A DNA stretch of 43,088 nt from a virus. The notes below the pieces were generated by a model that saw only the letters and a program-made list of their open reading frames with translations, did no database searches and was not told the DNA's origin. Location of the stretch: the IMG/VR virus record IMGVR_UViG_3300012917_000002, positions 1-43,088 of that record; one strand, given 5' to 3'. The stretch's first letter is position 1, and the number at the start of each line of letters is the position of its first letter. The translations under genes and the position numbers were made by a program. Shown in pieces: positions 5,294 to 31,038 of this stretch.

Positions 5294-6698
5294 ATCCATC
5301 TTCCTTCTTAAGATAGAGACTTGCTCCACGAAGACTATGTACAATTGCTTGAGAAAGTAAAGATGCTTCTGGTGCAGATGCATTAGTTTTAGTAGCCTGA
5401 AGTATCATTTGACCTAGCTGAGGATTACTTATTACTTTCTTAATAGCGTCTGATCCAAATATAATTCCTTCGGCCGCGCCAAATGGTACCCCCAATGCAC
5501 GAAATGGTAAGCTAAGAAGCAATACTTTCCGGCCTTCTCTCCAACTCATTAGATCAGTAGCTTTACCAACACCCTTATCTTGTGCTGTCTTCATTAATGC
5601 AGTAAATGTATCTAATGCTGGCTTTCCAAATGCTTCTTCATATATATCTGGTTTATTTCCTAATTCATTTAAAATAGCTGTAGGATTAATTGTATCAGCT
5701 GCTTTATAATAATTGCGTGTAACAAGATCATTGGCAGCCATCTGGCGTATAAGTGTAGGATTACCTGTAGCTAATTTCATATTGCGGACCGTGGTTACAT
5801 CTGATAACATGTCCTTTACAATTGGTGCTATCTTAGTAGTAGAAATTCCAGTTTGATTATATGGAACATTAAATAATTCATTAAGACTAGTTTCTGGTAT
5901 ATTTTGTTTTCCAGGTATGTTAGGTAGATTTTGCCGCATATTTTCAGCAGCAGTCTCCACAAGACTAGATTCTGGCATCATATATCCTTTGGCTTGATTT
6001 ACAAGTTGAGCTATCTTAACTGCTGGAGCTGCCAAAGTTTTTGTACCAGGCATAGCTAACATTGCGCCACGAAGTCCACGACTAGCTATACTACCTAAAA
6101 TAGATGGTAAAACTCCTTGAGATAAAATATCTCCACCATAATCAACAACCCGCTCTCCAGTTGTAACTCCAGGTGCACCAAATATAGATGGTGCTATGTT
6201 TTTAAGTGCTTGTCCTGTCGATGCTCCTACAGCTGCACCACCAATTGGTGCACCAATAACACTTCCTAAAATACTTCCTATCATTGCTAAACCTTGTGGT
6301 GTTTGTCTTGCAAATGCTCTAGCTGTACCTCCAAGTGAAGCTGGTTGAGAACCTTCATCATAAGATTCTCCAGGTTTAACATATACATCACGATTAGGAC
6401 CTGCCCAACTTCCAGCTTTTTCTGGTGCAAATTTGGCATACTGTGATTCATTAGAAAAAGTAGGATGGTTTGGTTTCTTAAAAGTATCTGGCCAATGTCC
6501 TGTTTGTGGATCTGGTGTTAAGCCAGCTTTAAAAGCGCCACGTAAATCATAATCAGCTCCTGAATCTTTAGGGGCATATTTTTGTTTCCATGCTTGAAAT
6601 TTGGTTTCATCTTGAGAAGATAATGGTGTATCAAAAGATTCTGGTATGTAACCATGTGGCGCGGCTGATTCTAATGTATATCCAGTAGGAGGAGGCAT
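5241..6698 (-). CDS. Putative internal virion/ejection protein with Gly-rich hydrophobic segments
   Basis: 485-aa ORF at the distal end of the late operon. GLAMIGSILGSVIGAPIGGAAVGAS looks like a membrane segment. Confidence 0.45.
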   Translation of the reverse strand: MPPPTGYTLESAAPHGYIPESFDTPLSSQDETKFQAWKQKYAPKDSGADYDLRGAFKAGLTPDPQTGHWPDTFKKPNHPTFSNESQYAKFAPEKAGSWAGPNRDVYVKPGESYDEGSQPASLGGTARAFARQTPQGLAMIGSILGSVIGAPIGGAAVGASTGQALKNIAPSIFGAPGVTTGERVVDYGGDILSQGVLPSILGSIASRGLRGAMLAMPGTKTLAAPAVKIAQLVNQAKGYMMPESSLVETAAENMRQNLPNIPGKQNIPETSLNELFNVPYNQTGISTTKIAPIVKDMLSDVTTVRNMKLATGNPTLIRQMAANDLVTRNYYKAADTINPTAILNELGNKPDIYEEAFGKPALDTFTALMKTAQDKGVGKATDLMSWREGRKVLLLSLPFRALGVPFGAAEGIIFGSDAIKKVISNPQLGQMILQATKTNASAPEASLLSQAIVHSLRGASLYLKKEDGSKEKIQVSQDGQLQTPH

Positions 6699-10748: not shown

Positions 10749-10968
10749 ACCAAACTTTTAGTCTATCACAAATTGAACATACTTCTTTTGGCGGCCGTGA
10801 TCCTTGAGTTAAAAAATAATTACCATAATTAGGTGATCTAAGCCTCATCTGTTCATGTCTAGCTTTATCATAAGAAGTATTCTCTGGCCCAGGATTAATA
10901 GCACTATGCGAAGCAAATGAAGTCTGTCCTTTGTTTCTCCACTTAGAGCTTAACGAACGGGGATCCAT
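10735..10968 (-). CDS. Hypothetical protein
   Basis: 77-aa ORF that overlaps both neighbours by a few codons. C-terminal cysteines: CSICDRLKVWCDC. Confidence 0.4.
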   Translation of the reverse strand: MDPRSLSSKWRNKGQTSFASHSAINPGPENTSYDKARHEQMRLRSPNYGNYFLTQGSRPPKEVCSICDRLKVWCDCA

Positions 10969-13900
10969 TTAGAATCACTTTCCATACCACTCAGAGATAC
11001 ACGTATTTGCATATCATATCTATGAAAGTAATCAATCGCCGGACCAAGTACAATACGGGCTACTGTTGTATTTATTGATTTAGGCATCTGAAGCTCGTAG
11101 ACATTATCAACTCCAACCACTACTGGTAGCGTTCCACTATAAATTGGAGTACCAATATTAGCAGGATCTGTAACATTTGCGTCACCATATATCGTTAAAG
11201 CTATAGGTGTAGCCCCGGTAGCCACTAATCGAGTTCTTAAATTAAAGATTTTCCCAATTTTGTCGAATCTGATTGGTCCAATTTGGTCAAATCGTTTAGG
11301 GACTGGGAGACCTTCAACATCCTCTTGTTGTCCAAATCCATAGAATTCAAAAGGCCCAGATGGGCTATATAAGGTCCCTCCAACATCGACTCCGAACATA
11401 TCGTCGATAAAGAAGTGGTATACTGTTGTCTTTCTTGTTGTGTTAAATACGGTTGTATGTGATTGTAATATACCGTCCACAATAGGTGTATAGAGGACAT
11501 CTTTTCCATTTGTAAGAATAACCAGTGGTATTGTACGAATACGCTTGCGGCCCGCGTAGCCGAAATTCTCTTGAGGAATAAATAGAAACTCAGCAGGTGT
11601 AGGAAGCTTCTCACTTACAGCCTCTTCAAGTAATGCTTGGTAAAATTCAAAAGGACCTTCCGGGTCTATTGATCTTAAGATTCCACCTATATCAGTACCT
11701 ATTGTTTCCTGGAGGAAATAATTAACTCGTGTTAGCTTAACTGCCGTAGAAAAAATCTGAGGAACCAAAGCAACGTTATCCACATAAGGAGTAAAGCTAA
11801 CGGAATTCCCCAGAGTATCAATAACAAATGGATAACTAGTAATCCGTTTTCTAGCATAAACACCTAAATTTGAATTCGGTATACGGAGATAATCAAGCTG
11901 TTCCGGCCGCGGATCATATTCAATCGTACTTTCGTACAATTTGAAGACTGTTACATCCGCCATGATATCAACAATCTTAAGTGCATAGCGGAATCCAAGA
12001 GTAACACCATCGAGTGGAAAATAGATAGTTGTCATTCCTGTAGCTTGTACATTACCTAAAGCTGTAAAAGTACCACGATCTTTAGCTATAGATACAGTAA
12101 CGAGCGATCCACCAGTGTCACATACAAGTTTTAATGTAAAAGTATCCTTACGATTACGTGGCTGCGCGTTAGCGTCGAAGATGGTTTGGAAAAATAAAGG
12201 TAAACCGTATTGTATAAAGTCACTAGCATTTGTCACTGGACCTAAATAGCCTGCTAGGACTTTATCTGTCGGCGTGGTAAATAAAGATAGTGGCGCCGTT
12301 TGGCGTAACGTAAATGTCTGTGCAAGTAAATCGTAAACAAATAGTCTTCGACTGCCATCTTGTAGTGGTAAAGATGCATAAAGCTTTGTCTTACCTGCTG
12401 TGATAGGATAAGCTATATTAGCGTTTGGCACAATAGATATTGGTGGGACACCATTTCTATTCATTCCCTGAAAAAGTAATTTTAATTGAGGAGAAAGTAA
12501 TGTTGAATGTGCCCCACGAGTAATTCGTATTCCATCGGACGCAACATAAAATATACCACCATTGACAGTCCATGCCTCGCGACCGAGTGGTGGGTAGGCT
12601 TCACCTATAGGAACAATCGTTATATCAATTGTACCATCTGGAAGAGTACCAAGCGTCCCCGTTATCTCATAAAGATTCTTACTTGTGCCTAAGCATAAAA
12701 CATTGTTAGAAACTTTCTTAATCCATAAATTGCGTTCCAATGTATCACCAAATGTCTTTATTGTATAGCGAGTATCAACAGCATCTGGATTAAGATCATC
12801 ACTAATATAGATAAACGAGTTAGCCATGTACAGAACCCTTGTCTGAAAAGGTTCTATATCATAAATAGTGTCAGTTAAAGCATTTGGATCTGGAGAACCC
12901 GGCCCGCCAACAAGTTGTAGAGTTAGTAAGAATTCATTAAGAATTTCGTTCTCTTCTAGAAGTGAGATATCTGAGCGGTTGTCAAAAAAGGAATCGTTAG
13001 TTGTTACGGCTACAAGATACCATTTACTTAAAAAAGATGTTGGTTGTACATCACTTGTCTGTACTGACTTACGGTATATATAATATATTGGTGGATAAAT
13101 ATCCCCCACAATTATTGGGGTACCCCCAGCACTTTGTAAACCACTTATAGTTATTGATCCATTTATAACTGTTATAGGATCACTTATTTGACCACCTGGC
13201 GATTTAGCTATGTATGAACCATATTGACGCCCGGACTGAATACGATATTGGTAAGTTCCATTAAGCTGACCTATAACTGTAAATATAGGAAGCGTAACAT
13301 TAAATGTTAGATTCTCAATAGCTATAATAGTGATCCGTATCTGGCGAACCGTAGTCCAATTAAGTGTAGCATCAGTACCGTGACGAGTAAAATCTTGTCT
13401 ACGACAGCTTAAATCTGTGGTATAGATAGTTTGAATATCTATAGGCCCATCCCACTTAAATGAATAGTAATTATTCCCAATAATATCAAGAAGAAAATCT
13501 ACTTGAACAGAAAGTACTTTAGGTACTGGATCTGATACAAGTGTTATAGTAAATAAATCTTTAGATGTATCTCCCTGAAATCCACGAGTCGTATCAAATG
13601 GAAGCCCCGTAATATATGTACCAATAACTTGACTTATAAAATTAGTTCCATCTACAGTAGCTTGGTATCCAGCGGTTGTATTAACCCCTAAAGTACCAAC
13701 AACTGCTACATAATTTGCACTAAATAATGCTTGTTGCTGAGATAATGCGTCAGTAAATGGAGTCCAAGGTGTAGGTATTCCAAGTCGTGTTCCACCATCA
13801 TCAATCGCAGCCGTACTTGTTTCTTTACCAGAAGCTTTCCACCGGCAAGTGCCAGCGGTTATTAATACTTGACCTAAAAAATCATCAAATGCACAATAAT

Positions 13901-14270
13901 CTGATCCAGGATTTTGATCTGCATTATTACCTAAAAAGAATGGTCCACCAGCCGGTCCATCCGCCCAGGTACCATCTTTTGTGAATACAATTAAAGATGT
14001 TCTATCCCCTAATGCGGCCCACTCAACTTCTTTATTCTCAACATTTTTTGAATAAAGAGATCGAGGATAATCTGAAAGAGGTTTTAAATCCTGTTGTTTC
14101 ATTCCTCTAACAAGACCAAGAACATTGTTCTCTTCTTGTTGAAGATTGTCCATACGTAGAAGTGCATCTGGCGGCCCGTCTACGTTATCAGCAGATGGTA
14201 TCCAACCCAAAGGCCAACTAGTTTTAGTTAAATTAGCCAACTTTATCCTTAAAATCCAAACTATCTCCAA
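10950..14270 (-). CDS. Large tail/hub structural protein (1106 aa)
   Basis: It is the longest ORF in the window, beta-rich, and lies in the tail part of the late operon. I recognised no enzymatic motif. Confidence 0.6.
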   Translation of the reverse strand: MEIVWILRIKLANLTKTSWPLGWIPSADNVDGPPDALLRMDNLQQEENNVLGLVRGMKQQDLKPLSDYPRSLYSKNVENKEVEWAALGDRTSLIVFTKDGTWADGPAGGPFFLGNNADQNPGSDYCAFDDFLGQVLITAGTCRWKASGKETSTAAIDDGGTRLGIPTPWTPFTDALSQQQALFSANYVAVVGTLGVNTTAGYQATVDGTNFISQVIGTYITGLPFDTTRGFQGDTSKDLFTITLVSDPVPKVLSVQVDFLLDIIGNNYYSFKWDGPIDIQTIYTTDLSCRRQDFTRHGTDATLNWTTVRQIRITIIAIENLTFNVTLPIFTVIGQLNGTYQYRIQSGRQYGSYIAKSPGGQISDPITVINGSITISGLQSAGGTPIIVGDIYPPIYYIYRKSVQTSDVQPTSFLSKWYLVAVTTNDSFFDNRSDISLLEENEILNEFLLTLQLVGGPGSPDPNALTDTIYDIEPFQTRVLYMANSFIYISDDLNPDAVDTRYTIKTFGDTLERNLWIKKVSNNVLCLGTSKNLYEITGTLGTLPDGTIDITIVPIGEAYPPLGREAWTVNGGIFYVASDGIRITRGAHSTLLSPQLKLLFQGMNRNGVPPISIVPNANIAYPITAGKTKLYASLPLQDGSRRLFVYDLLAQTFTLRQTAPLSLFTTPTDKVLAGYLGPVTNASDFIQYGLPLFFQTIFDANAQPRNRKDTFTLKLVCDTGGSLVTVSIAKDRGTFTALGNVQATGMTTIYFPLDGVTLGFRYALKIVDIMADVTVFKLYESTIEYDPRPEQLDYLRIPNSNLGVYARKRITSYPFVIDTLGNSVSFTPYVDNVALVPQIFSTAVKLTRVNYFLQETIGTDIGGILRSIDPEGPFEFYQALLEEAVSEKLPTPAEFLFIPQENFGYAGRKRIRTIPLVILTNGKDVLYTPIVDGILQSHTTVFNTTRKTTVYHFFIDDMFGVDVGGTLYSPSGPFEFYGFGQQEDVEGLPVPKRFDQIGPIRFDKIGKIFNLRTRLVATGATPIALTIYGDANVTDPANIGTPIYSGTLPVVVGVDNVYELQMPKSINTTVARIVLGPAIDYFHRYDMQIRVSLSGMESDSKWIPVR

Positions 14271-14625
14271 CAGCTATTTGGATATCTTTTATAAATAATT
14301 TCGTTAGCTCAGTTCCGCCCTCATGTTGATAATGAAAATAGATTATATCTTTCTTTATTTCATATTTCAGCCCTATCCATATAAAATGTGGTATAGCAAT
14401 ATAAATCCATCGAGGCTGTCCTATCTTAGTATAGTAACTTATCTTATCAATAACTTTAATTGTAATTGATATAGGATCACCAAGAAGTCTTGCTGTATGC
14501 AAGCTAGAATTCTGTTGAAAGGCTTCTCCTACTTCATACTCTACTCCAAGAGTAAGCCCAGCCTCTCTAGCTACATCCGTAGTAAATGCTGTTGGATTAT
14601 TATGTCGATCTGTTCTAAAAGTCAT
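14233..14625 (-). CDS. Hypothetical protein (possible cell-wall-acting virion protein)
   Basis: 130-aa ORF. The N-terminal RHNNPTAF vaguely resembles an RxNNPxN motif seen in some phage wall-associated proteins. The functional call is weak. Confidence 0.35.
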   Translation of the reverse strand: MTFRTDRHNNPTAFTTDVAREAGLTLGVEYEVGEAFQQNSSLHTARLLGDPISITIKVIDKISYYTKIGQPRWIYIAIPHFIWIGLKYEIKKDIIYFHYQHEGGTELTKLFIKDIQIAVGDSLDFKDKVG

Positions 14626-15686
14626 GGCACATCATTTAAATATCTCCTTATATAATTTATAAATAATCCACTATCACCCATAGGTGGTTGAATCACTTGA
14701 ATTGAATCACTAAGACTTAGAGTATCAACTGCGGTACGCTGAATATTTAAAATCCCAATATTAGTTATCATTAATCCAGTAATAAGATCGTTTAGACTTA
14801 GTGCATCAGTTACAATTCTTTGAATATCTAATATACCTAAATTCGTTACCGCTGTGAGAATACTATCAGAGAAACTTAGTGTATCATTTACATTTATTCG
14901 AATATCTCCAGATAATGCTAATGCAGCAATTGAATCATTAAGACTTAAAGTGTCACCCACAAATACACGAATATCAGATATAGGTGGGCCAGAAATTGCA
15001 ATAGAGTCGCTTAGGCTTAGAGTATCTGATATCTTCAGTTGTAAATCTAATAATACATTTATGCTATCAGATAATTGTAGTGCATCACTAAATAATACAG
15101 TATTATCTGTAGTTCCAGTAATAACTTGATCTGTCTCTGTAGCAACTAATAATCCTATAATATTTAATGGGGTTGGATTTGTTGGAGCAGTCAATGGTAT
15201 AGTAAAAGATACAGTTGCAAGAATACCACTAGCAATAATATTTGAATTATGCCCAAATACTAGCATATTATCACCAATAGTATCTAATTCTTTCCCAGCA
15301 GTAGTTCCGGCCGTGCCAATGGTTGCAGAATTAATAGTTAAATTAGCGTGGTCATATTGTAAGGCCCATTGAAGAGCAGAAGGAAAGGCATTGCCAGATA
15401 CTATTATATGTATACTAACTATTACTGTAGCGCCAAGTGCACCGATAACTTGATCTATAGATAAAGATACAATTCCAGATTCAATTAATCCAATATTATT
15501 AGTAACTAATATAGCGTCAACTAAAGATAGCTGGTCAGATACATTTATTGGAATACTAATGACATAAGATAAATTATCACTAAGAGCTAAGCTGTCAACC
15601 GCAGAGCGAGGTACACCATTAGCTGTAGCAATAGCATCACTAAGAGCTAAGCTATCGCTAACAGAGATAGGGATATCAGTTGGCAC
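14622..15686 (-). CDS. Repeat-rich fibre-like protein with central cohesin-like module
   Basis: Flanking DxLSLSDSI-type repeats occur at least 10 times. The central segment (aa ~72-197, nt 15096-15473) reads GATVIVSIHI...ALQWALQYDHANLTI...SGILATVSFTI, which matches the cohesin domain pattern as I remember it. Confidence 0.55.
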   Translation of the reverse strand: MPTDIPISVSDSLALSDAIATANGVPRSAVDSLALSDNLSYVISIPINVSDQLSLVDAILVTNNIGLIESGIVSLSIDQVIGALGATVIVSIHIIVSGNAFPSALQWALQYDHANLTINSATIGTAGTTAGKELDTIGDNMLVFGHNSNIIASGILATVSFTIPLTAPTNPTPLNIIGLLVATETDQVITGTTDNTVLFSDALQLSDSINVLLDLQLKISDTLSLSDSIAISGPPISDIRVFVGDTLSLNDSIAALALSGDIRINVNDTLSFSDSILTAVTNLGILDIQRIVTDALSLNDLITGLMITNIGILNIQRTAVDTLSLSDSIQVIQPPMGDSGLFINYIRRYLNDVP

Positions 15687-16692
15687 TCTTTATGATCTCT
15701 ACAAATGTACCATCTATAATACCACCACTTTGTTCTGCAAAATACTCTTTATCAACCATAGGAGCAATATTAATAGAAATCTTACTACCTGGTTTAACTA
15801 CTCTCACCCATTCTAGATGTGGCCTTGCTAAAGCTAAGAACTGTGGTTCCGTCACAATAATCCAATCAAATTGTTCTGCATCAAACGGAAGACTTCTATA
15901 ATCGACAGAATAATCACAAGGTATACCGTTATCAGAGCAATGCGTAATATCATAAGTCTCATCTACTAAATCTGTATAAGGTCCAAGTATAAGACATTTT
16001 TTATCTTTAATAACTAATTTCTGTCTCATTGGTAGGGAATCTTTAGGCAATTTATAAACACGTCCAGTATTTACATCGTGATGTTCACATATTACTGATG
16101 CATCGCAGTAAATTTTATAATCAGTTTCTTCCTTCACTTTCTTTAAAAAATAAAGATCCTCTGTCCAAGTTTCCGCCTGATTCACTGCATCCAAATAGTT
16201 ATCAGTATCAACTGTCTTAAACCATGGTTCTTTAAGTTTTTTAAATATCTCTACCCGCAAGAGTGTGCAGTCCATACCTAAACCAGAAACCTCAAAGAAC
16301 TCACCAACTTTCCAATCCCAGAATGAACCAGCACCATTTTCTTTAAATACTAATGGTGCCGGTGGATCTGATTTAGAGCAATAAACACCACCCACAACTC
16401 CAATATTAGGTATATTTTCCATCCTATATATAAGCTGCCTAAGAGTATGGGGAGGACACACAGTATCGTCGCCAATAAAGAATAAATATTTAGCATCTTT
16501 GGCTATCGCCTCTTTAGCAATTTCGTTACGAGCATCCGCCACTTGGCGGCCTTTAACTATATGGAAGATTACATTAAAATTTATAGGAGGGTTCATTCCT
16601 TTAAAATTAAGTGCCCAATCAAGAGGTACAGGACGGCCAAGAGTAGGTATACCAACAACTAGGCCCGGTCCAAGATTATTTTTAACTTTCAT
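15676..16692 (-). CDS. GT-A fold glycosyltransferase with C-terminal methyltransferase-like domain
   Basis: The N-terminus (GIPTLGRP...ARNEIAKEA...YLFFIGDDT) has a DxD-type motif. The C-terminal ~110 aa (CLILGP...FDWIIV...VVKPGSKI) looks like a degenerate class I methyltransferase. Confidence 0.65.
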   Translation of the reverse strand: MKVKNNLGPGLVVGIPTLGRPVPLDWALNFKGMNPPINFNVIFHIVKGRQVADARNEIAKEAIAKDAKYLFFIGDDTVCPPHTLRQLIYRMENIPNIGVVGGVYCSKSDPPAPLVFKENGAGSFWDWKVGEFFEVSGLGMDCTLLRVEIFKKLKEPWFKTVDTDNYLDAVNQAETWTEDLYFLKKVKEETDYKIYCDASVICEHHDVNTGRVYKLPKDSLPMRQKLVIKDKKCLILGPYTDLVDETYDITHCSDNGIPCDYSVDYRSLPFDAEQFDWIIVTEPQFLALARPHLEWVRVVKPGSKISINIAPMVDKEYFAEQSGGIIDGTFVEIIKSAN

Positions 16693-16918: not shown

Positions 16919-17389
16919 CTATCCAGACACAGTATAAGATACCGAAAATGTATTTGATGTAGCTTTAACAAAAGAAGCAAATGTCGCGTGGCCAAGCATC
17001 GTACCACCACCAGATGAATTAAAAAGGCCCATCTCAGCCAAAGTAGTATTAGCTAAATTAGTAGCAAAGCTAGCTTGTGCTTGCCAACTTGGAGGATTAG
17101 CAGTTAAACCAGTTGTAAGAAATGATGAGATCGCAGCACGAGTAACTTCTCCACCTAAAGCCGCATCACCCGTAACAGGCGCAACTGTAGAAGATCCAAT
17201 AGCTAGGTGTGAAATAGTTTGGGATGTAACTTGATTAACTGTTTCAAGTTGACCCAACACCCAGGCGCGGCCTGTAGTCACAACTACATTATCTACATTA
17301 ATCTCTCGTAGAATACGACCATTCTTAGCATCACAAAGAACTGCTCTAAGTGATCCTCTAAGTTGTATCACATTTAATTCTTGTTCCAT
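16919..17389 (-). CDS. Virion structural protein (unknown role)
   Basis: 156-aa ORF in the tail module with a conserved-looking E-x-GLF motif. Confidence 0.5.
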   Translation of the reverse strand: MEQELNVIQLRGSLRAVLCDAKNGRILREINVDNVVVTTGRAWVLGQLETVNQVTSQTISHLAIGSSTVAPVTGDAALGGEVTRAAISSFLTTGLTANPPSWQAQASFATNLANTTLAEMGLFNSSGGGTMLGHATFASFVKATSNTFSVSYTVSG

Positions 17390-17399
17390 ATCTTCTCCT

Positions 17400-18116
17400 T
17401 TAGAAGATCACTCTCTCAAAATTAGCAGGTAATAATGGCCGCGACTGGCGGAAATTATCTATTGCTAAGCGACCGTCATCTATAGCATATTTCTTAGAAA
17501 CAAAACATCCTTCATTAATCGCCCGAAATTGGTTAATTAAAAATTCATATTTATTCTTATAATAAGCTGCCGCAGTCAAAGACTGACCTTTACCTTCTGC
17601 TCCATATGCTTTCCAAAGTATCCATGCTTTACGTGTCCTACGATCTATATATTGTGGTAACACAAGAGTTGGATCAACATAAGATGTATCAGAAGTTCTC
17701 CAGCATGAAACTACACAAAATGGCTCATTTACTACTGGTCCATAAGGATCACCACCGGCTACGCCGAAGGTTTCATTTGGTGTTGGGAATAGTCGTATAT
17801 CATATGGATTTGTAGGATGTAGGCAATAATAAAGTGGTCGTGATACAACACTATTAACATTACCAGAATTTCCTGTTCCTACAAATACTGTTGCAGGAGT
17901 AAGAAGAGTCATCTCTTCCCAACTTACCGGATCTAATTTCCGCCCGCGCCACGTAACTCTAAGTACTGATCTTACGTAAGATGGCAACGTATAAACCATC
18001 AAACCAGATGTAACAGCTAGATAGAATTTAAAATAAATAGCTTGCAAATCTTGATTGATTTGCTGTTCTGCGTCAATCGCTAACTTGTTAAGGAAAGTGT
18101 TAGACCAAATAGACAT
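17400..18116 (-). CDS. Putative adaptor/tail structural protein
   Basis: 238-aa ORF. It shares a loose pattern with the next gene (RKL-P-S...W...P-YY...P-P), suggesting the two are paralogues. Confidence 0.45.
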   Translation of the reverse strand: MSIWSNTFLNKLAIDAEQQINQDLQAIYFKFYLAVTSGLMVYTLPSYVRSVLRVTWRGRKLDPVSWEEMTLLTPATVFVGTGNSGNVNSVVSRPLYYCLHPTNPYDIRLFPTPNETFGVAGGDPYGPVVNEPFCVVSCWRTSDTSYVDPTLVLPQYIDRRTRKAWILWKAYGAEGKGQSLTAAAYYKNKYEFLINQFRAINEGCFVSKKYAIDDGRLAIDNFRQSRPLLPANFERVIF

Positions 18117-18126
18117 ATCTTTTTAT

Positions 18127-18747
18127 TTACTTCAAAGAAGGTAAACGATCAGGTAATCTCTTATTTCTCATATAAACTCTTAAACTTTCCAAGTCATTTA
18201 TATAAGATTCAAGATGATTCCTCGCCTTAATAAATTCTTGATTCTGCTCAAATAAATCAGTTACACAATAATTCTCAAGCGCTGTTAAATGGTCGTCAGG
18301 AATAGGTATATTTGTAGCATCGACGAGAGTCGGGGCGGCCGCGCGGTAGAACACAAACATATTACCATAGCCGGCTGCGCCTGGTTTCTTATAGATAGCT
18401 ACATATCTATGTGATATTGGTACAAAATAATATGGTGTACCAAGTGCCGTTTCCCAATCAATTCGATCTTGATCCAACTTGCGTTGTGATGTTGGAATAA
18501 GCCATCTTTTTATATTATTATTGAAAATAGCAACTACACCTATATAGTTAGGTAGAAGTGTTAGGAGATCATAATAACTTTTTCCAGCAGCAAAGTTGAT
18601 TGTCGCAGATGCATAGATACATCCTGTAAAAGCACATATCTCATCTACACCATCTTGAATAGAATCATTCATGTCACCAACGGTGTAATAGGTGGGATTA
18701 TTTAGATATAGTTGTATACTATTTTGAATATCTATTCGAGTGGACAT
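18127..18747 (-). CDS. Putative adaptor/tail structural protein
   Basis: 206-aa ORF immediately downstream of the fibre gene in the late operon. Confidence 0.45.
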   Translation of the reverse strand: MSTRIDIQNSIQLYLNNPTYYTVGDMNDSIQDGVDEICAFTGCIYASATINFAAGKSYYDLLTLLPNYIGVVAIFNNNIKRWLIPTSQRKLDQDRIDWETALGTPYYFVPISHRYVAIYKKPGAAGYGNMFVFYRAAAPTLVDATNIPIPDDHLTALENYCVTDLFEQNQEFIKARNHLESYINDLESLRVYMRNKRLPDRLPSLK

Positions 18748-18762
18748 TTCATTTCTTCTCCA

Positions 18763-20643
18763 CTAATTGAGAATCGAGTAAGAAAGACACAGCGGATTCG
18801 TCGCAATGGTCCCACTATAGGTAATCGTAAAACTTGTTCCGGGAGTCCGTGCCGTAATCGCCATACCACCTACAAGCGTAGCAAGTATACTATTACAGGT
18901 CGTAGCTGCAATGATTAATGAATCGTCAGCCTGTAAGTGAATTGCGCTGTTAGCGGTGACTGCTGTAGTGTTCACCACTAATGAGACACTGGTTATTCCA
19001 GTCGGTAGCGCCACGTCTCCTGAAGCGGCATCAACACACATAGCCGGTGACCCTGCATCAGAGCAACGAGTAGCTGTGCCCCATAATGGAGAGGATGTAG
19101 TACCGAACAACTGTGTTGAAACGGTACTGCTATTCCCAATGACAGTCTGATTGCTGGCTGTGGCCGTCCCGTTGATCGCGATGATGTTAGTCAGCGGATT
19201 TCCCGTTGATGCGTTCACCGCCGTGAACCCCGACAACGTCGTCGAGGTCCCTAACACGACCGAGTTGTTGATGTCTTTATCCGTCCCGATCAACGTATCG
19301 CCGCTGCCATAGAACGCGGAGTTTGTTCCATCCCCAATGCTTCTGGCGGAGCGATAGCCACTGGCCAGTAGATAAGGTCCGGTATTATTTTGAGAGGACT
19401 CTTTGCCATTTACGGTGACGCCATTCCCTGTATTATTTTCTGCGGCAGCAAAACCAGATACAGTAACATCATTGCCGGTATTGGCATTTGCTGCGTTTTC
19501 CCCCACGGCTACGAGGAACCCACCTGTGTTATTTTGAGCAGCCGCGATCCCTATCACGGTTACATTCGCGTTGGTATTTGATGCCGCTGCGTTTTTTCCA
19601 ACGGCCGTCAGACTATTTCCAATGTTCTGAGCGGCGGCGGAATACCCCATCGCTGTAACATAGCTTCCGGTGTTCGCTTCTCCTGCATTCTGGCCTAAGA
19701 AGCTACTACCGTATCCCGTGTTGTTTTGCCCGGCATAGTACCCAAAGGCACTGAGCCCGTCACCCATGTTGTTTTCCCCGGCATGATGGCCGACAGCCAT
19801 GGCGTATAGACCGCCGTTATTTTTAAGGGCGTCATAACCCAGCCCCAAAGTCAAATCAGGAAACCGCAATGGTAAACTCAGATCCGTTTTAGAACTATTT
19901 GTAAGACTAATAAAAGCAGGGAATGGCGCGGAAACGCCGGAGGTATAGCTTTTCACCGAGACGGAAGCAAGCACCCAGCCATCTCCGTCCGCTAAGAAAT
20001 TAATGGCATTTGAATCCATGATGAACGTGTAGGTACCTGGATTCACCATGGTGAAATAAAACGTCGTGCCGTTAGTTACTTCTAACCCGAAGCCAGCACC
20101 ACGTGTGGCTAGAACTGCTTCTACCCATACTTTCCCCATCCCACTTATCGATTGAGACAGTGTTCCGCCCGCCATACCGACTGCTTGATTAGCGACGTTG
20201 GTCCAACTCATCGTAGGATCAACGGTCCACCCGGTTAGATCACCAGTTTGAAAAGTGCCGTTAGTTAAAAGTTCTGTGTTCCCAATTGTTGGGGCTAAAA
20301 CAGAACTGACACTAACAGTTGTTGGAGAAGTCGTATTAACAGAAAATATTCCTCCACCACCATTTAATTGTGCTTGCCCTACTGAGCCTGCCGGGGTAGC
20401 TCCACCACCTAATGATATAATAACCCAAGCAGATCCATTTGATCTACAAAAATTAATACTACTTCCACCACCTACTGTACAGTCACTACTTGAAGATCCA
20501 TCTTTTATAATACGTACTGTACCATTATTAGATGATGCAGATCCTAATCCAGCTACTGTATAATTACTTCTTACAACCGCTGTCGGTTGCGCCAGTAAGC
20601 TGATGGTTAAAATTAGTCCTATTAAATATTTCACTTTTCTCAC
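18763..20643 (-). CDS. Chimeric tail fibre/adhesin with Sec-type leader, jelly-roll-like domain and NTG beta-roll repeats
   Basis: N-terminus is MRKVKYLIGLILTISLLAQP. LLTNGTFQTGDLTGW is like a CBM/galactose-binding-like domain. Ten 16-aa A-x-x-N-N-T-G repeats follow. The C-terminal ~500 aa lie in a higher-GC segment. Confidence 0.7.
   Translation of the reverse strand: MRKVKYLIGLILTISLLAQPTAVVRSNYTVAGLGSASSNNGTVRIIKDGSSSSDCTVGGGSSINFCRSNGSAWVIISLGGGATPAGSVGQAQLNGGGGIFSVNTTSPTTVSVSSVLAPTIGNTELLTNGTFQTGDLTGWTVDPTMSWTNVANQAVGMAGGTLSQSISGMGKVWVEAVLATRGAGFGLEVTNGTTFYFTMVNPGTYTFIMDSNAINFLADGDGWVLASVSVKSYTSGVSAPFPAFISLTNSSKTDLSLPLRFPDLTLGLGYDALKNNGGLYAMAVGHHAGENNMGDGLSAFGYYAGQNNTGYGSSFLGQNAGEANTGSYVTAMGYSAAAQNIGNSLTAVGKNAAASNTNANVTVIGIAAAQNNTGGFLVAVGENAANANTGNDVTVSGFAAAENNTGNGVTVNGKESSQNNTGPYLLASGYRSARSIGDGTNSAFYGSGDTLIGTDKDINNSVVLGTSTTLSGFTAVNASTGNPLTNIIAINGTATASNQTVIGNSSTVSTQLFGTTSSPLWGTATRCSDAGSPAMCVDAASGDVALPTGITSVSLVVNTTAVTANSAIHLQADDSLIIAATTCNSILATLVGGMAITARTPGTSFTITYSGTIATNPLCLSYSILN
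19303..19782 (-). repeat. Ten tandem 48-nt (16-aa) degenerate repeats inside the fibre gene
   Basis: AGENNMGDGLSAFGYY / AGQNNTGYGSSFLGQN / AGEANTGSYVTAMGYS and so on, aligned by hand. This is the periodicity of adhesin-head (YadA/Hep_Hag-like) beta-rolls. Confidence 0.75.
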
Positions 20644-20647
20644 TTTC

Positions 20648-21079
20648 TTATCTTACACAAGAAACGCCATAAGTAAGCGCGCCAGGATCATAAGCAGCAC
20701 CACTTAAATTAGCAAGCATAACAGATATCACATCAGAAGCAGAACACCATGCAGTCATAATAACTCCGTCAGCTAACCCCGCGGGCCGTAAAGTAGCAAT
20801 ATAATCAGTTACACGTGCACCAACTAAAGCAAATGTCAAAATAGCATACGAACAATCATCTATTGAACCAAAATTTAAAGAAGCTGTGCCTGCAAGATTT
20901 GTAGGGCTACCAGAAGAAGAAGCTATAAGTGTCCAAACGCCTGCTGAGAAACAGCCGTAAAGTGCAGGACTTGTACCAGTAAGAAAGAAGAATCTATAAA
21001 GTTTAGCATTAGTTGGCAAAGTCTCACCAACAAGCATATATCGCTCTATAGTTCTTCCAGATTCTCCAACTTGATTCAT
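20648..21079 (-). CDS. Hypothetical protein between the methyltransferase and the fibre gene
   Basis: 143-aa ORF with a 4-nt start/stop overlap with the upstream methyltransferase. Confidence 0.5.
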   Translation of the reverse strand: MNQVGESGRTIERYMLVGETLPTNAKLYRFFFLTGTSPALYGCFSAGVWTLIASSSGSPTNLAGTASLNFGSIDDCSYAILTFALVGARVTDYIATLRPAGLADGVIMTAWCSASDVISVMLANLSGAAYDPGALTYGVSCVR

Positions 21080-21618
21080 CTTGCTAGTCCTAATTCACTT
21101 GTTAATACCATCTCTCGGCTTACCGGAGCAGGATCTTTATAGGCGCATAGAATAGTATTGTATGGTTCATTGTCACTTTCGTACCGAAACCCTACTCGGT
21201 AAAATCCAGCCGCCTCAAGAGTTTCCTTTATCTCATGAGAATCCATAGGTACAACATGGTAATCAGTGTCATAAAGCTGGCGGCCGTAGAGTGTTGCTCT
21301 CCAGAAAGTACGTTGATTATTTTCATTCTCAATAAATCTCCGCGCGCATTCTTTAAACTCTGGATAGGCAAGTGTCAACGACCCATTATCTTTAAGTACT
21401 CTAGTAAACTCCGCCAGGAGGCGACCCCACTTAGGCATCTCTATATGTTCAAGACAATGAATCATCCATATTTGATCTACAGAATTTTGTTCATAAGGTA
21501 ACTGTTTATCAACAAAGTCAAGTACCAAATCTGGTTTAACATTACCAGCACTTACACAATCTATATTTATAAATCCATCTAACTTAAATTCGCCACAACC
21601 TAAATTTAGTTTAAGCAC
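21076..21618 (-). CDS. Class I SAM-dependent methyltransferase
   Basis: Motif I is LNLGCG. The downstream pattern VDQIWMIHCLEHI...VLKDNGSL is typical of the type-11 family. The GTG start directly abuts the glycosyltransferase stop. Confidence 0.75.
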   Translation of the reverse strand: MLKLNLGCGEFKLDGFINIDCVSAGNVKPDLVLDFVDKQLPYEQNSVDQIWMIHCLEHIEMPKWGRLLAEFTRVLKDNGSLTLAYPEFKECARRFIENENNQRTFWRATLYGRQLYDTDYHVVPMDSHEIKETLEAAGFYRVGFRYESDNEPYNTILCAYKDPAPVSREMVLTSELGLAR

Positions 21619-22365
21619 CTAGGTCATCTCCTGCATAACTGACTCAATATGTGCTTTCATCCGAAATTTAATAGCATCCTTTTCATCAAACTCCGGTTTG
21701 TAGAATTCTCGTAACTTAGATACATTCTCATCAGAGACAGCATCAGGCATAAGTAGATGGCCAGTTGATACCTTTGTATCCACATATATAGATGGTTCAG
21801 GTTCAAGCTCTGCACGGGCCTTTAAACAAAAATAAACATCTTCTGTATGCCCTGGTCCTGTTACAAAATAAGGTGGACTCATAGCTCGAATTACATCAAC
21901 CTTTATAAGTACACAACTAAAACCTACTGCCCCAGTCTTAACTAACCCAGCTTCATCAATTTCTTCAGGGTAGCTGTCGTGGAAAGTAAGATTCTTACGT
22001 GTCTTACCATTCACGGGATTATGTACATCCGGTCCAAAATCCTTAAAGAACATTGGGTGAAAAGGATATCCCCGTACATACGTTAGCGCCAAGATGATAT
22101 CTTTATCGGCCGTGCGGAGAGATGTATAAGTATTCGGTTTAACAATCACATCATCATCAATAAACATAAGATAATCACATTTATGGACCATTGCAACTTT
22201 TGCACAATCATTACGCATATTATCTATTGACATTCGATATGGAGTATAAAAGATAAATTCATCATCCGGAAAATCTCTTTTCATCTCTACCCAAAGTTTA
22301 CAATGAGAAGAATAGACAAAAGAATTTACAGATTCAAGTGTATTTACACCAACTAATGTTTTCAT
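21619..22365 (-). CDS. GT2-like (GT-A fold) glycosyltransferase
   Basis: 248 aa with a DxD motif (LMFIDDDV) and NMRNDCAKVA upstream, as in family 2 glycosyltransferases. Confidence 0.7.
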   Translation of the reverse strand: MKTLVGVNTLESVNSFVYSSHCKLWVEMKRDFPDDEFIFYTPYRMSIDNMRNDCAKVAMVHKCDYLMFIDDDVIVKPNTYTSLRTADKDIILALTYVRGYPFHPMFFKDFGPDVHNPVNGKTRKNLTFHDSYPEEIDEAGLVKTGAVGFSCVLIKVDVIRAMSPPYFVTGPGHTEDVYFCLKARAELEPEPSIYVDTKVSTGHLLMPDAVSDENVSKLREFYKPEFDEKDAIKFRMKAHIESVMQEMT

Positions 22366-27518: not shown

Positions 27519-29000
27519 TTAAGTTGAAGCAGCTACCAAAGCACCTTTAGACATTTTCTTTATCATATTAAAATACTTAAGTGTGTTTCGACTAACGGGA
27601 CGGCTAATCTCCGTTTTAGGTGATCCATGCATTGCAACAAAGTATCTAGTAGGATCATACGCATGGTCAGTCACACTATCCTCGCGATCGTCACAGTAGA
27701 TAGCTTTGCCTTCAAAATAACCAAGTAACTTACGCCGTTGACTTTGCAACTGTGTAATTGCATGATAGCAGCCATAAGGATTTTCAATAGATCGTTTAAT
27801 GAAATATATTCCTGGTGCAGGGGAACTTTCAGTATAGGGATGTTTAAAACGGTCCGCGGGTCGTAGAAGCTCATTTATTCGATTACGAGTAGCATGTTCA
27901 TTATTATCTGCTGGAAGCCACGCAATTGGAGGTGCATCGATTTCTTTCGTAAGGTATTCATCAGCTACTGTCCAAAATCCTCCAGCTTTTTGAGCTGTCT
28001 TTTTAAAAATTTGGGGATCTGCAAAGTTTGAGCTATATCGTTCCGCGCCGCTTAAGTCAAAAATTGCTTTTCTATGATTAGAAATAACTTCGTTGGGACA
28101 ATAGTATTCTCTATAACAAATGTATACTCCGCGAAAAACTCCAAACCAGAGACAGCAAGTAGGAGACGAATCTCCATGATCCAAAGATCTAAACAAATTC
28201 CCCTTTGTTCGTAATTTTTCCATAAAATCTTTATCAAACTCAAGAGAGCTTTCAGGCAAAAGACGATGTATCTGAGCATTAGAAATTCCCCATTTACCTA
28301 ATACATATTTTTCAATATATTCCGAACCCTTTTTAAGTGCATTTCTATAAGTTTCTTCAGATCCAAGACCAGGATCCCACTCACCTTCTGTAAAAAAATA
28401 TTCTGGATCAACTGTAAGTGACTCAGGATGATATTTACGATATATATAATGATACTGTGTATCAGGATTTGTAAGTAGCATCATATAAGATGGAGCAATA
28501 AGACGACCTGTCTTAGGATTTCGTGGCCATTGCCCATTATGTGCTAATAATGAAGCTGGAATCTCAACATTATCCCAGCGGCCGATACGAGCATCAAGAA
28601 CATCATAAACTTTCTCTTCTGTTTCCTCAGCTTGGTCTACTAAGACACTATTAACTTCCAAACCACGCAACGTATTTTCATCAACTTTATCTAAATGAAG
28701 CCAAAAAATTGTACTTTTATTCTTAAGTACCGTTAATCCATCTTGTTCATTGTGGCGCTCAATTAGCTCAGAAGGACAAAGTTTAAAGAAAGTCTGCATT
28801 GTTGTACGTTTAAGATCGGCATAAACCTGACGAGCAATAGCCATTCTATAGTTATGGAAAGTCGATAGTAGTGTAAAAGCCTTAAGACAACCTGCGTAAG
28901 TCTTACCATTGTTAAAACCTCCACTAAAGCACTGGTTTCTGCTATTAGAATAATAAAATTGACGTTGTTGAGGATTTGCAAACTGAATCTCTAAATCCAT
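27519..29000 (-). CDS. terL: Terminase large subunit
   Basis: Walker A is GGFNNGKT and Walker B-like is VLVDQAEE, followed by a C-terminal nuclease-type region. I prefer ATG 29000 (a TAATG overlap with the upstream stop) over the track GTG at 29018. Confidence 0.9.
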   Translation of the reverse strand: MDLEIQFANPQQRQFYYSNSRNQCFSGGFNNGKTYAGCLKAFTLLSTFHNYRMAIARQVYADLKRTTMQTFFKLCPSELIERHNEQDGLTVLKNKSTIFWLHLDKVDENTLRGLEVNSVLVDQAEETEEKVYDVLDARIGRWDNVEIPASLLAHNGQWPRNPKTGRLIAPSYMMLLTNPDTQYHYIYRKYHPESLTVDPEYFFTEGEWDPGLGSEETYRNALKKGSEYIEKYVLGKWGISNAQIHRLLPESSLEFDKDFMEKLRTKGNLFRSLDHGDSSPTCCLWFGVFRGVYICYREYYCPNEVISNHRKAIFDLSGAERYSSNFADPQIFKKTAQKAGGFWTVADEYLTKEIDAPPIAWLPADNNEHATRNRINELLRPADRFKHPYTESSPAPGIYFIKRSIENPYGCYHAITQLQSQRRKLLGYFEGKAIYCDDREDSVTDHAYDPTRYFVAMHGSPKTEISRPVSRNTLKYFNMIKKMSKGALVAAST

Positions 29001-30412
29001 TAAGGCCCTACTACACAAGTACCACCAAGCGCAGCTGTAACTATACGTAATACAGTATTTACATTACACACACCTTGACCATTTATATTAGCGGTACATG
29101 GAATCTTACTAAGCTCCATATCAACAACTAACTTTACATCAAATATATCAGTTCGGCCATCTTTATTTAAATCACAGGCATAAGGTGTTGTAAAAGCTCC
29201 GAGATCCCATGAAGTATTAGATCGAGTGAACCCGTCAAAATCAAGTGCTGCTTGAACAATCGGTACGCCACGACCTATAGCTGGGCTATTTGCCTGTAAA
29301 TGATAATTAAATATACCGGGATTTACAAAAAGTGGATCTCCAATAGTATTATTAGTTTGAGTAATAGTACCCAACCCACCTTGCGGATTTATACCAGTAC
29401 ATACATCTGGAGTAATTATATTTGGAAGCAATACAGTTATTGAAGAACCAAAGAGGAGATTATGGTCGAATAAGTTAACCCCAGTGTAAGTAGAATCAGG
29501 ACAATCCGCAACTACTGCTCGCTGAATATTTCTAAATATACTATTACGTATTTTAACATTGCCTACAGTGTCACCATTACCATCACCAATTTGAATAACT
29601 CCATCTCGACAACCAAGACAAGCAGGACCATCGAAAGTATTATTTGATATATTATAATCAGTACCACTACCTATAGGTGTTATAGCAATAGCCCAACCAG
29701 CAAGAAGATCATAAAAAATACTATTAACTATAGTTACAAAGCTACCATTTATATATAAATTTTGGTCATGCCAATAAGCCTGACTACAAGGAGCCGGATT
29801 AGTATTACAAGGACTTAAACGACCGATATGATGAAATATATCACTGTCAAAAGTAATATTATTAGAACCATTTAAAACTAGAACGCCTACTTTCGCGCCG
29901 GCTGTGTTAGTTATTATATTTCCTATATTTCTAAATTCACAATGTTTAAAAGTTAAATTATTTCCTTGTGAAAATATTCCAGCCACATAAGTATTCTGAA
30001 TTATAAAGCTATCTATGGTTATATATGTAGCAATATTGGAGATAAAGAAATAAGAGTGGCATAACATACCTGAGTCTAACGTAGCGCCACGCAGATTCTC
30101 AGCTTTTATAACTATAGGGCTACCCGAGGAGGCGGCCGTAGATATAGTTACTGCATAACCATCAGGGGATAGAATATTACTATTTTGAGGATCTGGTGCT
30201 GTAGTTGTACAGTGGCCTGCTCCTGGGCCATAAGTACCATTTTTAACTACCACTGTGTCGCCAGCAATTGATACATTTACACCTTTTTGTATAGTTAAAT
30301 ATGGAGCAGCCGCAGTTCCAGCATTTGTATCAGCTCCACTGGTGGCTACATAACGTGTTGCTGCGCAACCTATAACTGAAGTAAGAATAATATAGATAAT
30401 AAATTTACGCAT
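29000..30412 (-). CDS. Right-handed beta-helix (pectate-lyase-like) protein with lipoprotein leader and C-terminal dockerin
   Basis: The leader MRKFIIYIILTSVIGC contains a lipobox. Beta-helix repeats include ITIDSFIIQNT and LTFKHCEFRNIGN. The C-terminus DLNKDGRTDIFDVKLVVDMEL...NINGQGVCNVNTVLRIVTAAL forms two dockerin-type Ca-loop/helix segments (nt 29024-29173). Confidence 0.7.
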   Translation of the reverse strand: MRKFIIYIILTSVIGCAATRYVATSGADTNAGTAAAPYLTIQKGVNVSIAGDTVVVKNGTYGPGAGHCTTTAPDPQNSNILSPDGYAVTISTAASSGSPIVIKAENLRGATLDSGMLCHSYFFISNIATYITIDSFIIQNTYVAGIFSQGNNLTFKHCEFRNIGNIITNTAGAKVGVLVLNGSNNITFDSDIFHHIGRLSPCNTNPAPCSQAYWHDQNLYINGSFVTIVNSIFYDLLAGWAIAITPIGSGTDYNISNNTFDGPACLGCRDGVIQIGDGNGDTVGNVKIRNSIFRNIQRAVVADCPDSTYTGVNLFDHNLLFGSSITVLLPNIITPDVCTGINPQGGLGTITQTNNTIGDPLFVNPGIFNYHLQANSPAIGRGVPIVQAALDFDGFTRSNTSWDLGAFTTPYACDLNKDGRTDIFDVKLVVDMELSKIPCTANINGQGVCNVNTVLRIVTAALGGTCVVGP

Positions 30413-30876: not shown

Positions 30877-31038
30877 CTTTTAGTATCCAAGTATGTAAAT
30901 ATAAAGGTTATATACAGGATTTAAAGCCCTAGGTATAGTACATAATACGTAAAAAATAAAAAATAAAAGTATTAAATCAAAGATTAAACCAAAAATTAAC
31001 ACAAGAAGACGGCCCGCGCCTGTGGCGCCACTCATATA

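Follow-up and report, generated by a model that had tools for sequence, protein, structure and literature searches.

We describe a putative viral cohesin-dockerin pair. The DNA analyzed here, referred to as the window, is a 43,088-nucleotide stretch (IMG/VR virus record IMGVR_UViG_3300012917_000002, positions 1 to 43,088) that comprises almost the whole ~43-kb genome (contig 43,106 bp) of an uncultured, soil-associated podovirus-like phage. One of its genes encodes a repetitive, fibre-like protein containing what its profile match and predicted fold indicate is a genuine cohesin. Another encodes an exported protein, modelled as a right-handed beta-helix and likely to depolymerize exopolysaccharide, that ends in a divergent dockerin (Table 1). 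The two modules also occur together in the nearest complete relative of this phage. We estimate a probability of roughly 40% that the exported enzyme is captured after lysis by cohesin fibres on the virion, which would arm the progeny with a depolymerase.

A cohesin predicted within a repetitive fibre-like protein

An earlier interpretation made from the DNA letters alone (the sequence-only reading) had proposed a fibre-like protein in this region. The corresponding open reading frame (ORF) exists on the minus strand, and every peptide string quoted in that reading is found in its translation. The plus strand of the same interval contains stop codons throughout. The central domain had been read as a cohesin-like beta-sandwich, and this assignment is borne out by a profile hidden Markov model (HMM) and by structure prediction. 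Against Pfam PF00963 the domain scores 31.2 bits (E 2.9e-7), where the gathering cut-off is 24.1, and the match spans profile positions 2-137 of 139. Precomputed PF00963 matches are recorded for the proteins P0001 and P0002.

An AlphaFold2 (AF2) model of the fibre protein, built on only four close homologues, has predicted local distance difference test (pLDDT) values of 62-80 over residues ~70-185 and 8-9 strands between residues 71 and 200; the strands assigned to the cohesin module span residues 71-183. The confidence of the cohesin model is only moderate because the multiple sequence alignment consisted of four sequences. The sequence-only reading had considered a fold unrelated to cohesin as an outcome that would speak against it; instead, the model agrees with the nine-stranded, flattened beta-sandwich of jelly-roll topology that defines cohesins and can be superposed on solved examples. 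In a Foldseek search of the PDB, the top 27 matches were all cohesins, with template modelling (TM) scores of 0.66-0.77 normalized to the target and root mean square deviations (rmsd) of 2.5-3.9 A. The best example was 6kgd_A (E 4.4e-9, TM 0.75, rmsd 3.0 A). Cohesins solved together with dockerins were among the matches (6kgd_A, 5nrm_A and 1ohz_A), as were non-cellulosomal cohesins from Archaeoglobus (2xdh) and Clostridium perfringens (2jh2). At the level of sequence alone, a profile of the four homologues matched the Acetivibrio cellulolyticus ScaB cohesin 5nrm_A at a marginal E value of 0.005, and a single-sequence phmmer search of the fibre against the PDB returned only noise.

The Foldseek match at rank 28 was 9ifr, the "CLIPPER domain" of a Gram-negative fibrillar adhesin (E 1.5e-6, TM 0.69). 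Cohesin-like sandwiches occur in adhesin stalks too, and a few viral proteins with cohesin-like folds are present in BFVD.

Both flanks of the cohesin are repetitive. Using the pattern [DN]x[LIF]x[LFI]xDx[ILV] with restricted x positions, we found the repeat core eight times in the fibre ORF, at residues 11, 31 and 51 and then at 221, 245, 268, 294 and 321, and not once in the remaining six-frame translation of the window. Shuffling the protein 20,000 times gave at most 1 copy, with a mean of 0.003. The sequence-only reading was correct in describing the flanks as repeat arrays; these are not tandem arrays of 9-residue units. The cores are spaced 20 aa apart in the N-terminal flank, where they read DSLALSDAI, DSLALSDNL and DQLSLVDAI, and 23-27 aa apart in the C-terminal flank, and therefore the DxLSLSDxI 9-mers are the conserved cores of longer units of 20-27 aa. 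The duplication of longer units proposed in the same reading was recovered as a pair of 21-aa segments, NLGILDIQRIVTDALSLNDLI (residue 282) and NIGILNIQRTAVDTLSLSDSI (residue 309), which are identical at 13 of 21 positions. No tandem repeat was found in the fibre gene at the DNA level. Both flanks have pLDDT values below 50, as expected, for the N-terminal flank, of a fibre modelled as a monomer.

The protein has no signal peptide and no cysteines. Close to its C-terminus is a motif, Y[ILVM]RRYLNDV, that is present in all of the homologues and in ~25 divergent members of the family, within ~15 residues of the C-terminus and mostly within 5. A few members have variants such as YLRKYLNDI and YIRHYLNDV. 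The AF2 model places a helix at residues 340-351 in this region, with low confidence. We infer that the YxRRYLNDV peptide anchors the protein to the particle.

A divergent dockerin on an exported beta-helix protein

The dockerin noted in the sequence-only reading at 29024-29173 corresponds to residues 414-463 of the 470-aa ORF listed in Table 1. By itself, the module does not reach the cut-off of Pfam Dockerin_1 (PF00404): the E value is 0.094 and the score is 13.4 bits, compared to a cut-off of 22.9, with one F-hand aligned. Profile-profile comparison, a profile search of the PDB and structure prediction nevertheless support its assignment as a divergent dockerin. A profile of the module built from the window sequence and the cellular homologues P0010 and P0036 matched dockerins first among PDB entries (4fl4_A, 9.9e-6; 1daq, 1.2e-4), and EF-hand proteins were matched more weakly. 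When four phage-type modules were compared with eight cellular modules in hhalign, the two sets aligned with a probability of 99.0% and an E value of 5.8e-18 over 63 columns, spanning the entire module. All eight cellular modules pass Pfam Dockerin_1, the best with an E value of 2.1e-10.

An HMM of the phage module also matched the C-termini of the cellular proteins P0154, P0145, P0169 and P0163 with E values of 1e-11 to 1e-15, in addition to matching P0040, P0044 and P0041. The cellular proteins in this comparison had been retrieved via the phage cohesin profile, and P0145, P0154, P0169 and P0163 carry phage-type dockerins in the same chain as the region that the cohesin profile detects. Judged from these sequences, the phage cohesin and the phage dockerin appear to belong to cognate families.

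In the AF2 model of the 470-aa protein (pLDDT 81.7), the module consists of a loop-helix, a linker and a second loop-helix, with helices at residues 423-433 and 451-461. Type I dockerins have two F-hand Ca2+-binding loops (D-x-N/D-x-D-G-x-x-x-x-x-D), each with a helix after it. The first F-hand loop of the phage module (DLNKDGRTDIFD) is canonical, and four cysteines are conserved in the phage-type dockerin subtype. Taken together, the alignments and the model indicate that this is a genuine but divergent dockerin, homologous to cellular dockerins over both duplicated segments.

The remainder of the protein resembles secreted carbohydrate-active enzymes. The same model contains a right-handed beta-helix over residues 19-372, for which Foldseek found likenesses to the PL9 enzyme Pel9A, rhamnogalacturonan lyase, PL6 alginate and chondroitin lyases, GH136 and the Vibrio biofilm lyase RbmB. 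Weak Pfam matches to Pel9A-like and DUF1565 families were found, and the NCBIfam choice-of-anchor Q model matches residues 364-407 (E 1.3e-6). The 470-aa protein contains 14 cysteines. Signal peptides are present in its homologues at the equivalent site, just before a conserved (T/S)YYVA motif. The closest full-length cellular homologue that bears the same dockerin, P0010, is encoded in an exopolysaccharide (EPS) locus together with a GT4 glycosyltransferase, an epimerase and a UDP-glucose dehydrogenase. From the modelled fold, exopolysaccharide-depolymerizing activity is likely.

This EPS locus, on a forest-soil contig with a GC content of 56% (L095), encodes two adjacent Pel9A-like beta-helix proteins (3287-4711 and 5150-6559). 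Both end in dockerins of the cysteine-containing type, and these match the phage-module HMM with E values of 4e-26 and 1.5e-31.

The enzyme gene lies just upstream of the gene for the large terminase subunit (TerL); 19 nt at its 3' end are shared with the TerL start, an overlap that suggests late co-expression. A scan for promoters and terminators near the enzyme gene found no more than expected by chance. Immediately upstream of the enzyme gene is a 51-aa, strongly hydrophobic ORF (MSGATGAGRLLVLIFGLIFDLILLFFIFYVLC..., 30880-31035, minus strand) that is a holin candidate; no endolysin was identified.

Co-occurrence of cohesin and dockerin in related phages

The nearest complete relative, SRR21686402_20981, has a TerL that is 82% identical to that of the window and encodes the cohesin fibre P0002. 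Directly upstream of its TerL gene is a gene for a 1087-aa protein (L004:5260-8523) with its own signal peptide, 24 cysteines and no Pfam match. Its C-terminus is the same dockerin as in the window, including the final ...AALGGSCVVGP*. The only part that it has in common with the 470-aa protein of the window is the last 58 residues, which are 64% identical (E 3e-19). As read from the two sequences, these sister genomes would illustrate a plug that is kept and a cargo that is swapped.

Across the 98 loci examined (0.91 Mb), the cohesin HMM matched only the window clade (L001 and L096), and the dockerin HMM matched only the sister phage locus L004 and the cellular locus L095. Seven distinct relatives have a verified YLNDV fibre that lacks a cohesin (L002/L005, L008, L012, L018, L019, L061 and L088). 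No dockerin was found in any of the seven, in which 4.1-5.9 kb could be read upstream of TerL, or in the partially informative relatives L031, L077 and L098. Broader searches gave the same result. A scan of IMG/VR with the fibre profile recovered no further cohesin phages, two degenerate DNA patterns for the dockerin end had no match in 2.9 million IMG/VR contigs, and loci anchored on the major head protein (25 from IMG/VR, 63 from JGI metagenomes and one from GTDB genomes) contained no further cohesin or dockerin.

The co-occurrence that the sequence-only reading predicted for relatives is seen: the other cohesin-fibre genome with a readable terminase region is dockerin-positive, compared to none of the seven cohesin-less relatives. 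A naive Fisher test of 2/2 versus 0/7 gives a p value of ~0.03 before any correction for relatedness. The association of cohesin and dockerin is real in this sample, which contains two related positive genomes and about half of the genome of each relative.

In this lineage, the position immediately upstream of TerL receives variable cargo. For example, it contains a fusion of a glycosyltransferase (GT) and a Sulfotransfer_4 domain in L018 (3472-4797, E 1.6e-35), a beta-helix-like protein lacking a signal peptide in L077 (3180-4511) and only small ORFs in L005, L097 and L098. In the sister phage, an HNH/AP2-like gene (L004:10004-10510) lies between the TerL and portal genes; the window lacks it, and its TerL and portal genes abut.

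A large family of fibre-like proteins with exchangeable modules

Three homologues of the window fibre, P0002-P0004, are 48-55% identical to it and have the same architecture. A profile search of 1.84 billion representative proteins returned 1176 matches at E <=0.001, which fall into three classes: proteins with cohesin domains, proteins with repeats (up to 29 cores per protein) and proteins with repeats and a YLNDV-type end. The third class contains ~25 proteins of 146-643 aa that combine the repeats with a terminal Y[ILVM]RRYLNDV, mostly within 5 residues of the C-terminus. More than 40 other proteins recovered by the family profile carry 3-29 copies of the fibre repeats.

The module displayed by these proteins varies. 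It is a cohesin in the window, P0002, P0003 and P0004; Laminin_G_3 in P0102, P0130 and P0146, all above the Pfam cut-off; and DUF2341 in P0103, above the cut-off, with a weaker match in P0102. P0005 has weak similarity to F5/8-type-C (discoidin-like) domains, and P0006 and P0007 have no displayed module. In P0042 (146 aa) and P0043 (151 aa), the N- and C-terminal flanks of the cohesin clade are joined directly, without a cohesin, and therefore the cohesin is an insertion into a pre-existing fibre. In this clade, the cohesin sits between the third and fourth repeats as an insertion or deletion cassette. We infer from these comparisons a large, unnamed family of fibre-like proteins in which a shaft of 20-27-aa beta-strand repeats attaches through a C-terminal peptide and carries, distally or laterally, an exchangeable module.

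In a more distant relative (L088), two tandem genes (17178-19265, 696 aa; 19258-20139, 294 aa) encode proteins that both end in Y-x-RRYLND. This arrangement suggests that several fibres can share one attachment site.

The term "fibre-like" in the sequence-only reading is supported by the position of the gene in the tail gene block and by a positional orthologue across the lineage. Membership of a known tail-fibre family is not: the protein matched no described tail-fibre or tailspike family (the PHROGs search gave only a match of 0.023 to an unrelated family, and NCBIfam gave nothing), and a tblastn search of 50,697 phage records gave no match. Our use of the label "fibre" is correspondingly provisional and reflects the repeats and synteny.

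Possible post-lysis arming and alternative explanations

The enzyme is predicted to be exported via Sec and has 14 cysteines, and the fibre has neither a signal peptide nor cysteines; any docking would therefore have to occur outside the cell or after lysis, rather than during assembly in the cytoplasm. This separation of the two proteins into different compartments is a point missing from the interpretation offered in the sequence-only reading. In the mechanism that we propose, virions bearing cohesin fibres would assemble in the cytoplasm, and the enzyme would be exported and would fold outside the cell with Ca2+ and disulfides. At lysis, the cohesin would capture the dockerin, the two phage modules presumably binding each other, and progeny virions would carry a polysaccharide depolymerase into the next infection. 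This plug-and-socket coupling would make the enzyme replaceable with the fibre untouched. We put forward more tentatively the broader proposition that a virus has co-opted cohesin-dockerin coupling for extracellular arming, making enzymes that cannot fold in the cytoplasm usable and swappable through one terminase-adjacent cargo gene. The arrangement is not a cellulosome, given that there is one cohesin, no secreted scaffoldin and a cohesin located in a viral structural protein.

Several observations weigh against post-lysis arming. With TerL proteins that are 82% identical, the two positive genomes are closely related, and therefore the co-occurrence may go back to one evolutionary event. The sequence covered amounts to about half of the genome of each relative, and in L097, whose TerL is 84% identical, the 835 bases read upstream of TerL contain only small ORFs. 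This dockerin is already found at the end of cellular homologues of the enzyme, two of them adjacent in one EPS locus, so enzyme and dockerin may have come to the phage jointly, with no selection for pairing with the phage cohesin. Dockerins within one organism are typically alike, and the 64% identity between the two phage dockerins is thus no proof of exchange within phages. The second loop of the phage dockerin (NINGQGVCNVNT) is degenerate and has lost its acidic ligands; the four conserved cysteines may substitute for the second Ca2+ site. Synteny is the one line of evidence that places the fibre in the virion, and we found no precedent for the arming of a virion after lysis. A shared host rich in cohesin-dockerin proteins would also yield the observed co-occurrence.

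This last point leads to an alternative that we regard as somewhat unlikely, in which the two modules separately engage the host's own cohesin-dockerin surface network. The fibre cohesin would then mediate adsorption or receptor binding via a dockerin-bearing host protein, and the enzyme would dock on host cohesin scaffolds, for example to clear exopolysaccharide for the release of progeny or to destroy receptors. Among cellular proteins, those closest to the phage cohesin are secreted and have either three to four cohesins and a dockerin or one cohesin and a cysteine-bracketed dockerin, and therefore cohesin-dockerin systems exist in likely donor or host organisms. Consistent with such a network, enzymes of cellular EPS loci bear the same dockerin type, two of them in one locus. 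The lectin-like modules of sister fibres (Laminin_G_3, DUF2341 and discoidin-like) are typical of receptor or adhesion roles, and the export of the enzyme takes it away from assembling virions. However, this alternative requires two independent adaptations instead of one. The only related contig in GTDB genomes belongs to an unclassified "MAG: bacterium nzgw467". The presence of the dockerin on unrelated cargo in exactly the cohesin-bearing genomes fits either view.

Alternatively, the modules may be functionally unconnected, which we consider unlikely. The cohesin fold would be a beta-sandwich decoration or adhesin that binds a glycan or another ligand, and the dockerin would be baggage of an acquired host enzyme. 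The free exchange of beta-sandwich modules in the fibre family, some members of which have none, is compatible with this explanation, as is the use of the TerL-upstream slot as a general cargo site. Likewise, the cellular homologues P0010 and P0036 are already enzyme-dockerin fusions, and only two positive genomes, from one clade, are available. Against this, the domain passes a curated cohesin model and best matches dockerin-binding cohesins, not carbohydrate-binding modules (CBMs) or immunoglobulin (Ig) domains. In addition, the sister phage has the same dockerin, including its final CVVGP, at the end of a 1087-aa protein that is otherwise unrelated. Because the dockerin is found in exactly the cohesin genomes and neither in cohesin-less relatives nor, as a DNA pattern, in the 2.9 million IMG/VR contigs, its random presence is improbable.

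Finally, it is highly improbable that the ORF encodes a non-structural or cell-surface repeat protein or that the cohesin call is a false positive of biased composition: the protein matches no known tail-fibre family, PHROG or cultured phage and its flanks are modelled with low confidence, but its position between the adaptor genes and a 1100-1400-aa structural protein is strictly conserved in a lineage with ~1000 TerL relatives, it has no signal peptide, and the cohesin is independently backed by the HMM, the fold and hundreds of cohesin-domain profile matches.

Genomic context

Table 1. Features of the window discussed in the text, with coordinates relative to its first nucleotide
Feature	Coordinates	Strand	Description
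1106-aa conserved structural protein	10950..14270	-	Downstream of the fibre cassette; candidate nozzle or tail body
130-aa protein	14233..14625	-	Start overlaps the fibre-gene stop codon; candidate chaperone or adaptor
Modular fibre-like protein	14622..15686	-	354 aa, GTG start; repeats, cohesin, repeats, C-terminal motif
C-terminal motif YIRRYLNDV	14628..14654	-	Residues 345-353; putative virion-attachment anchor
C-terminal flank	14670..15086	-	Residues 201-339; five 23-27-aa units with DTLSLSDSI-type cores
Cohesin module	15096..15467	-	Residues 74-197; Pfam PF00963
N-terminal flank	15483..15686	-	Residues 1-68; three ~20-aa units
GT2-like 338-aa protein	15676..16692	-	Overlaps the fibre-gene start
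TerL	27519-29018		Large terminase subunit ORF
Exported right-handed beta-helix protein	29000..30412	-	470 aa, C-terminal dockerin (fold as modelled)
Divergent dockerin	29003..29176	-	Residues 413-470; 58 aa, two loop-helix segments, four conserved cysteines
Signal peptide MRKFIIYIILTSVIGCAA	30359..30412	-	Read from the sequence directly; possibly lipoprotein type (VIGC)

The window has a GC content of 37.5% and encodes TerL, a portal protein and a major head protein, as well as PolA, an SNF2 helicase and a PD-(D/E)XK nuclease; no tRNAs were found in it. No close cultured phage relative was found, the fibre and the 1106-aa protein being without a match, and the nearest cultured matches of TerL, the terminases of haloarchaeal and Paenibacillus phages, are only ~23% identical. 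TerL has 993 homologues at E <1e-20, mostly on contigs of 38-45 kb. The contigs related via the major head protein come largely from JGI metagenomes, many of which we took as soil from their identifiers.

The order of genes around the fibre is two adaptors, a 156-aa protein, the GT2-like protein, the fibre, a protein of ~130 aa (113-136) and a protein of 1100-1400 aa. It is the same in the window, L001, L002, L003 and L096, and every relative that could be read in this region follows it. The two adaptors are tandem paralogues of the SU10 adaptor family PF24175 (17400-18116, E 1.2e-8; 18127-18747, E 8.9e-16; both on the minus strand), and the pair is kept in relatives. The 156-aa protein matches a PHROG annotated as "tail fiber protein" at 2.8e-6. 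Downstream of the fibre gene, a 113-136-aa orthologue is present in all relatives examined; the 130-aa protein of the window had no family or PDB match. The 1106-aa protein has orthologues of 1100-1400 aa at the equivalent position in relatives and matched nothing in Pfam, PHROGs or cultured phages.

The 338-aa GT2-like protein scores 27.9 bits against Pfam Glycos_transf_2 (cut-off 23.3). We ruled out its co-variation with the cohesin, as it is a core gene that is present in cohesin-less relatives too. A second GT-like paralogue is encoded at 21619-22365 (minus strand); both belong to phrog_1574, and one passes the Pfam GT2 model. An S-adenosylmethionine (SAM)-dependent methyltransferase gene (21076-21618, minus strand) lies with the two GT-like paralogues within the structural block, and all are core genes of the lineage. 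Together with the Ser/Thr-rich repeats, these genes may point to glycosylation of the virion or fibre.

A 626-aa ORF (18763-20643, minus strand) occupies a slot that is variable among relatives and has a local GC fraction of 0.447, compared to 0.375 genome-wide. It has a weak match to the C-terminal domain of a K1 lyase (E 0.0023) and no sequence match in the PDB, and it is a candidate for the primary tailspike or receptor-binding protein. Adjoining PolA (135-2591, plus strand) is a gene for a 154-aa protein (2546-3010, plus strand) with a dATP/dGTP diphosphohydrolase N-terminal domain (PF18909, E 2.3e-14). We dropped the suggestion of a 2-aminoadenine (Z-base) genome raised by this protein, as the marker enzyme PurZ was not matched; the 401-aa ORF beside it had no PurZ-like or other PDB match.

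Implications and comparison with known systems

In the library of papers that could be searched, we found no natural cohesin-dockerin pair encoded by a phage, only engineered uses with phage display or cell surfaces. If the pairing proposed here is true, it would mark the first time that a natural cohesin-dockerin system is employed by a virus, and a new mode of attaching an enzyme to a virion that is non-covalent, extracellular and post-lysis. It would explain how a phage can use host-derived secreted enzymes that need disulfides or calcium, and it would provide a new route for the evolution of host range, through replacement of a single cargo gene with the socket left in place. Plug-in phage engineering would gain a ready-made natural chassis. 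Even without the pairing, the analysis defines a large, undescribed fibre family with DxLSLSDxI repeats, a putative YxRRYLNDV anchor and interchangeable modules in an abundant lineage of soil phages.

The closest known counterparts are cellulosomal and non-cellulosomal cohesin-dockerin systems, such as those of Clostridium thermocellum (CipA-Xyn10B, 1ohz), A. cellulolyticus (ScaB-Cel5, 5nrm), C. acetobutylicum (CohA2-Doc0917, 6kgd), Archaeoglobus fulgidus (2xdh) and C. perfringens (2jh2), with which the phage cohesin shares a fold and an HMM match. The phage dockerin is homologous to the dockerins of these systems over both segments and has a canonical first F-hand, and like those of cellulosomal enzymes it is C-terminal on a secreted protein of carbohydrate-active type, following a choice-of-anchor Q domain. 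In contrast to cellulosomal dockerins, its second Ca2+ loop is degenerate, it contains four conserved cysteines, and taken singly it scores below the Pfam threshold. A scaffoldin is secreted, carries several cohesins and receives several dockerin-bearing enzymes, whereas the window encodes one cohesin and one dockerin-like module. Unlike the cohesins of scaffoldins, the phage cohesin is single, has no signal peptide and lies inside the repeat shaft of a phage structural protein. The putative phage partners, unlike those of cellulosomal pairs, are made in different compartments.

Some exported proteins encoded by phages act at the cell surface, for example the T5 lipoprotein Llp and soluble depolymerases released at lysis. 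The 470-aa protein resembles these in being a phage product with a signal or lipoprotein-like peptide that would act outside the cytoplasm late in infection. We know of no exported phage protein of the Llp type that carries a dockerin or is recaptured by a virion-borne cohesin.

Depolymerase tailspikes of podoviruses and myoviruses carry conserved N-terminal anchor or adaptor domains, as in the Klebsiella KP32/KP34-type and K64-1 receptor-binding proteins, CBA120 TSP1-4 and G7C gp63.1-gp66 (PMC6872550, PMC5380687). The arrangement described here is similar in that a conserved attachment element would make enzymatic modules exchangeable without rebuilding the tail, and its beta-helix cargo is polysaccharide lyase-like. 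It differs in that the known systems use phage-specific anchor domains and cytoplasmic assembly, compared to a candidate cohesin-dockerin pair borrowed from cells and an exported enzyme. Moreover, the putative anchor of the fibre is not an N-terminal domain but a peptide at the C-terminus, YxRRYLNDV.

A further parallel is found in the Ig-like domains of T4 Hoc and in the lectin- or CBM-like modules of fibres, in which a structural shaft likewise displays an exchangeable beta-sandwich. Unlike Hoc-type display, the module displayed here belongs to a family whose characterized members bind a protein partner, the dockerin, and the phage genome also encodes a matching partner.

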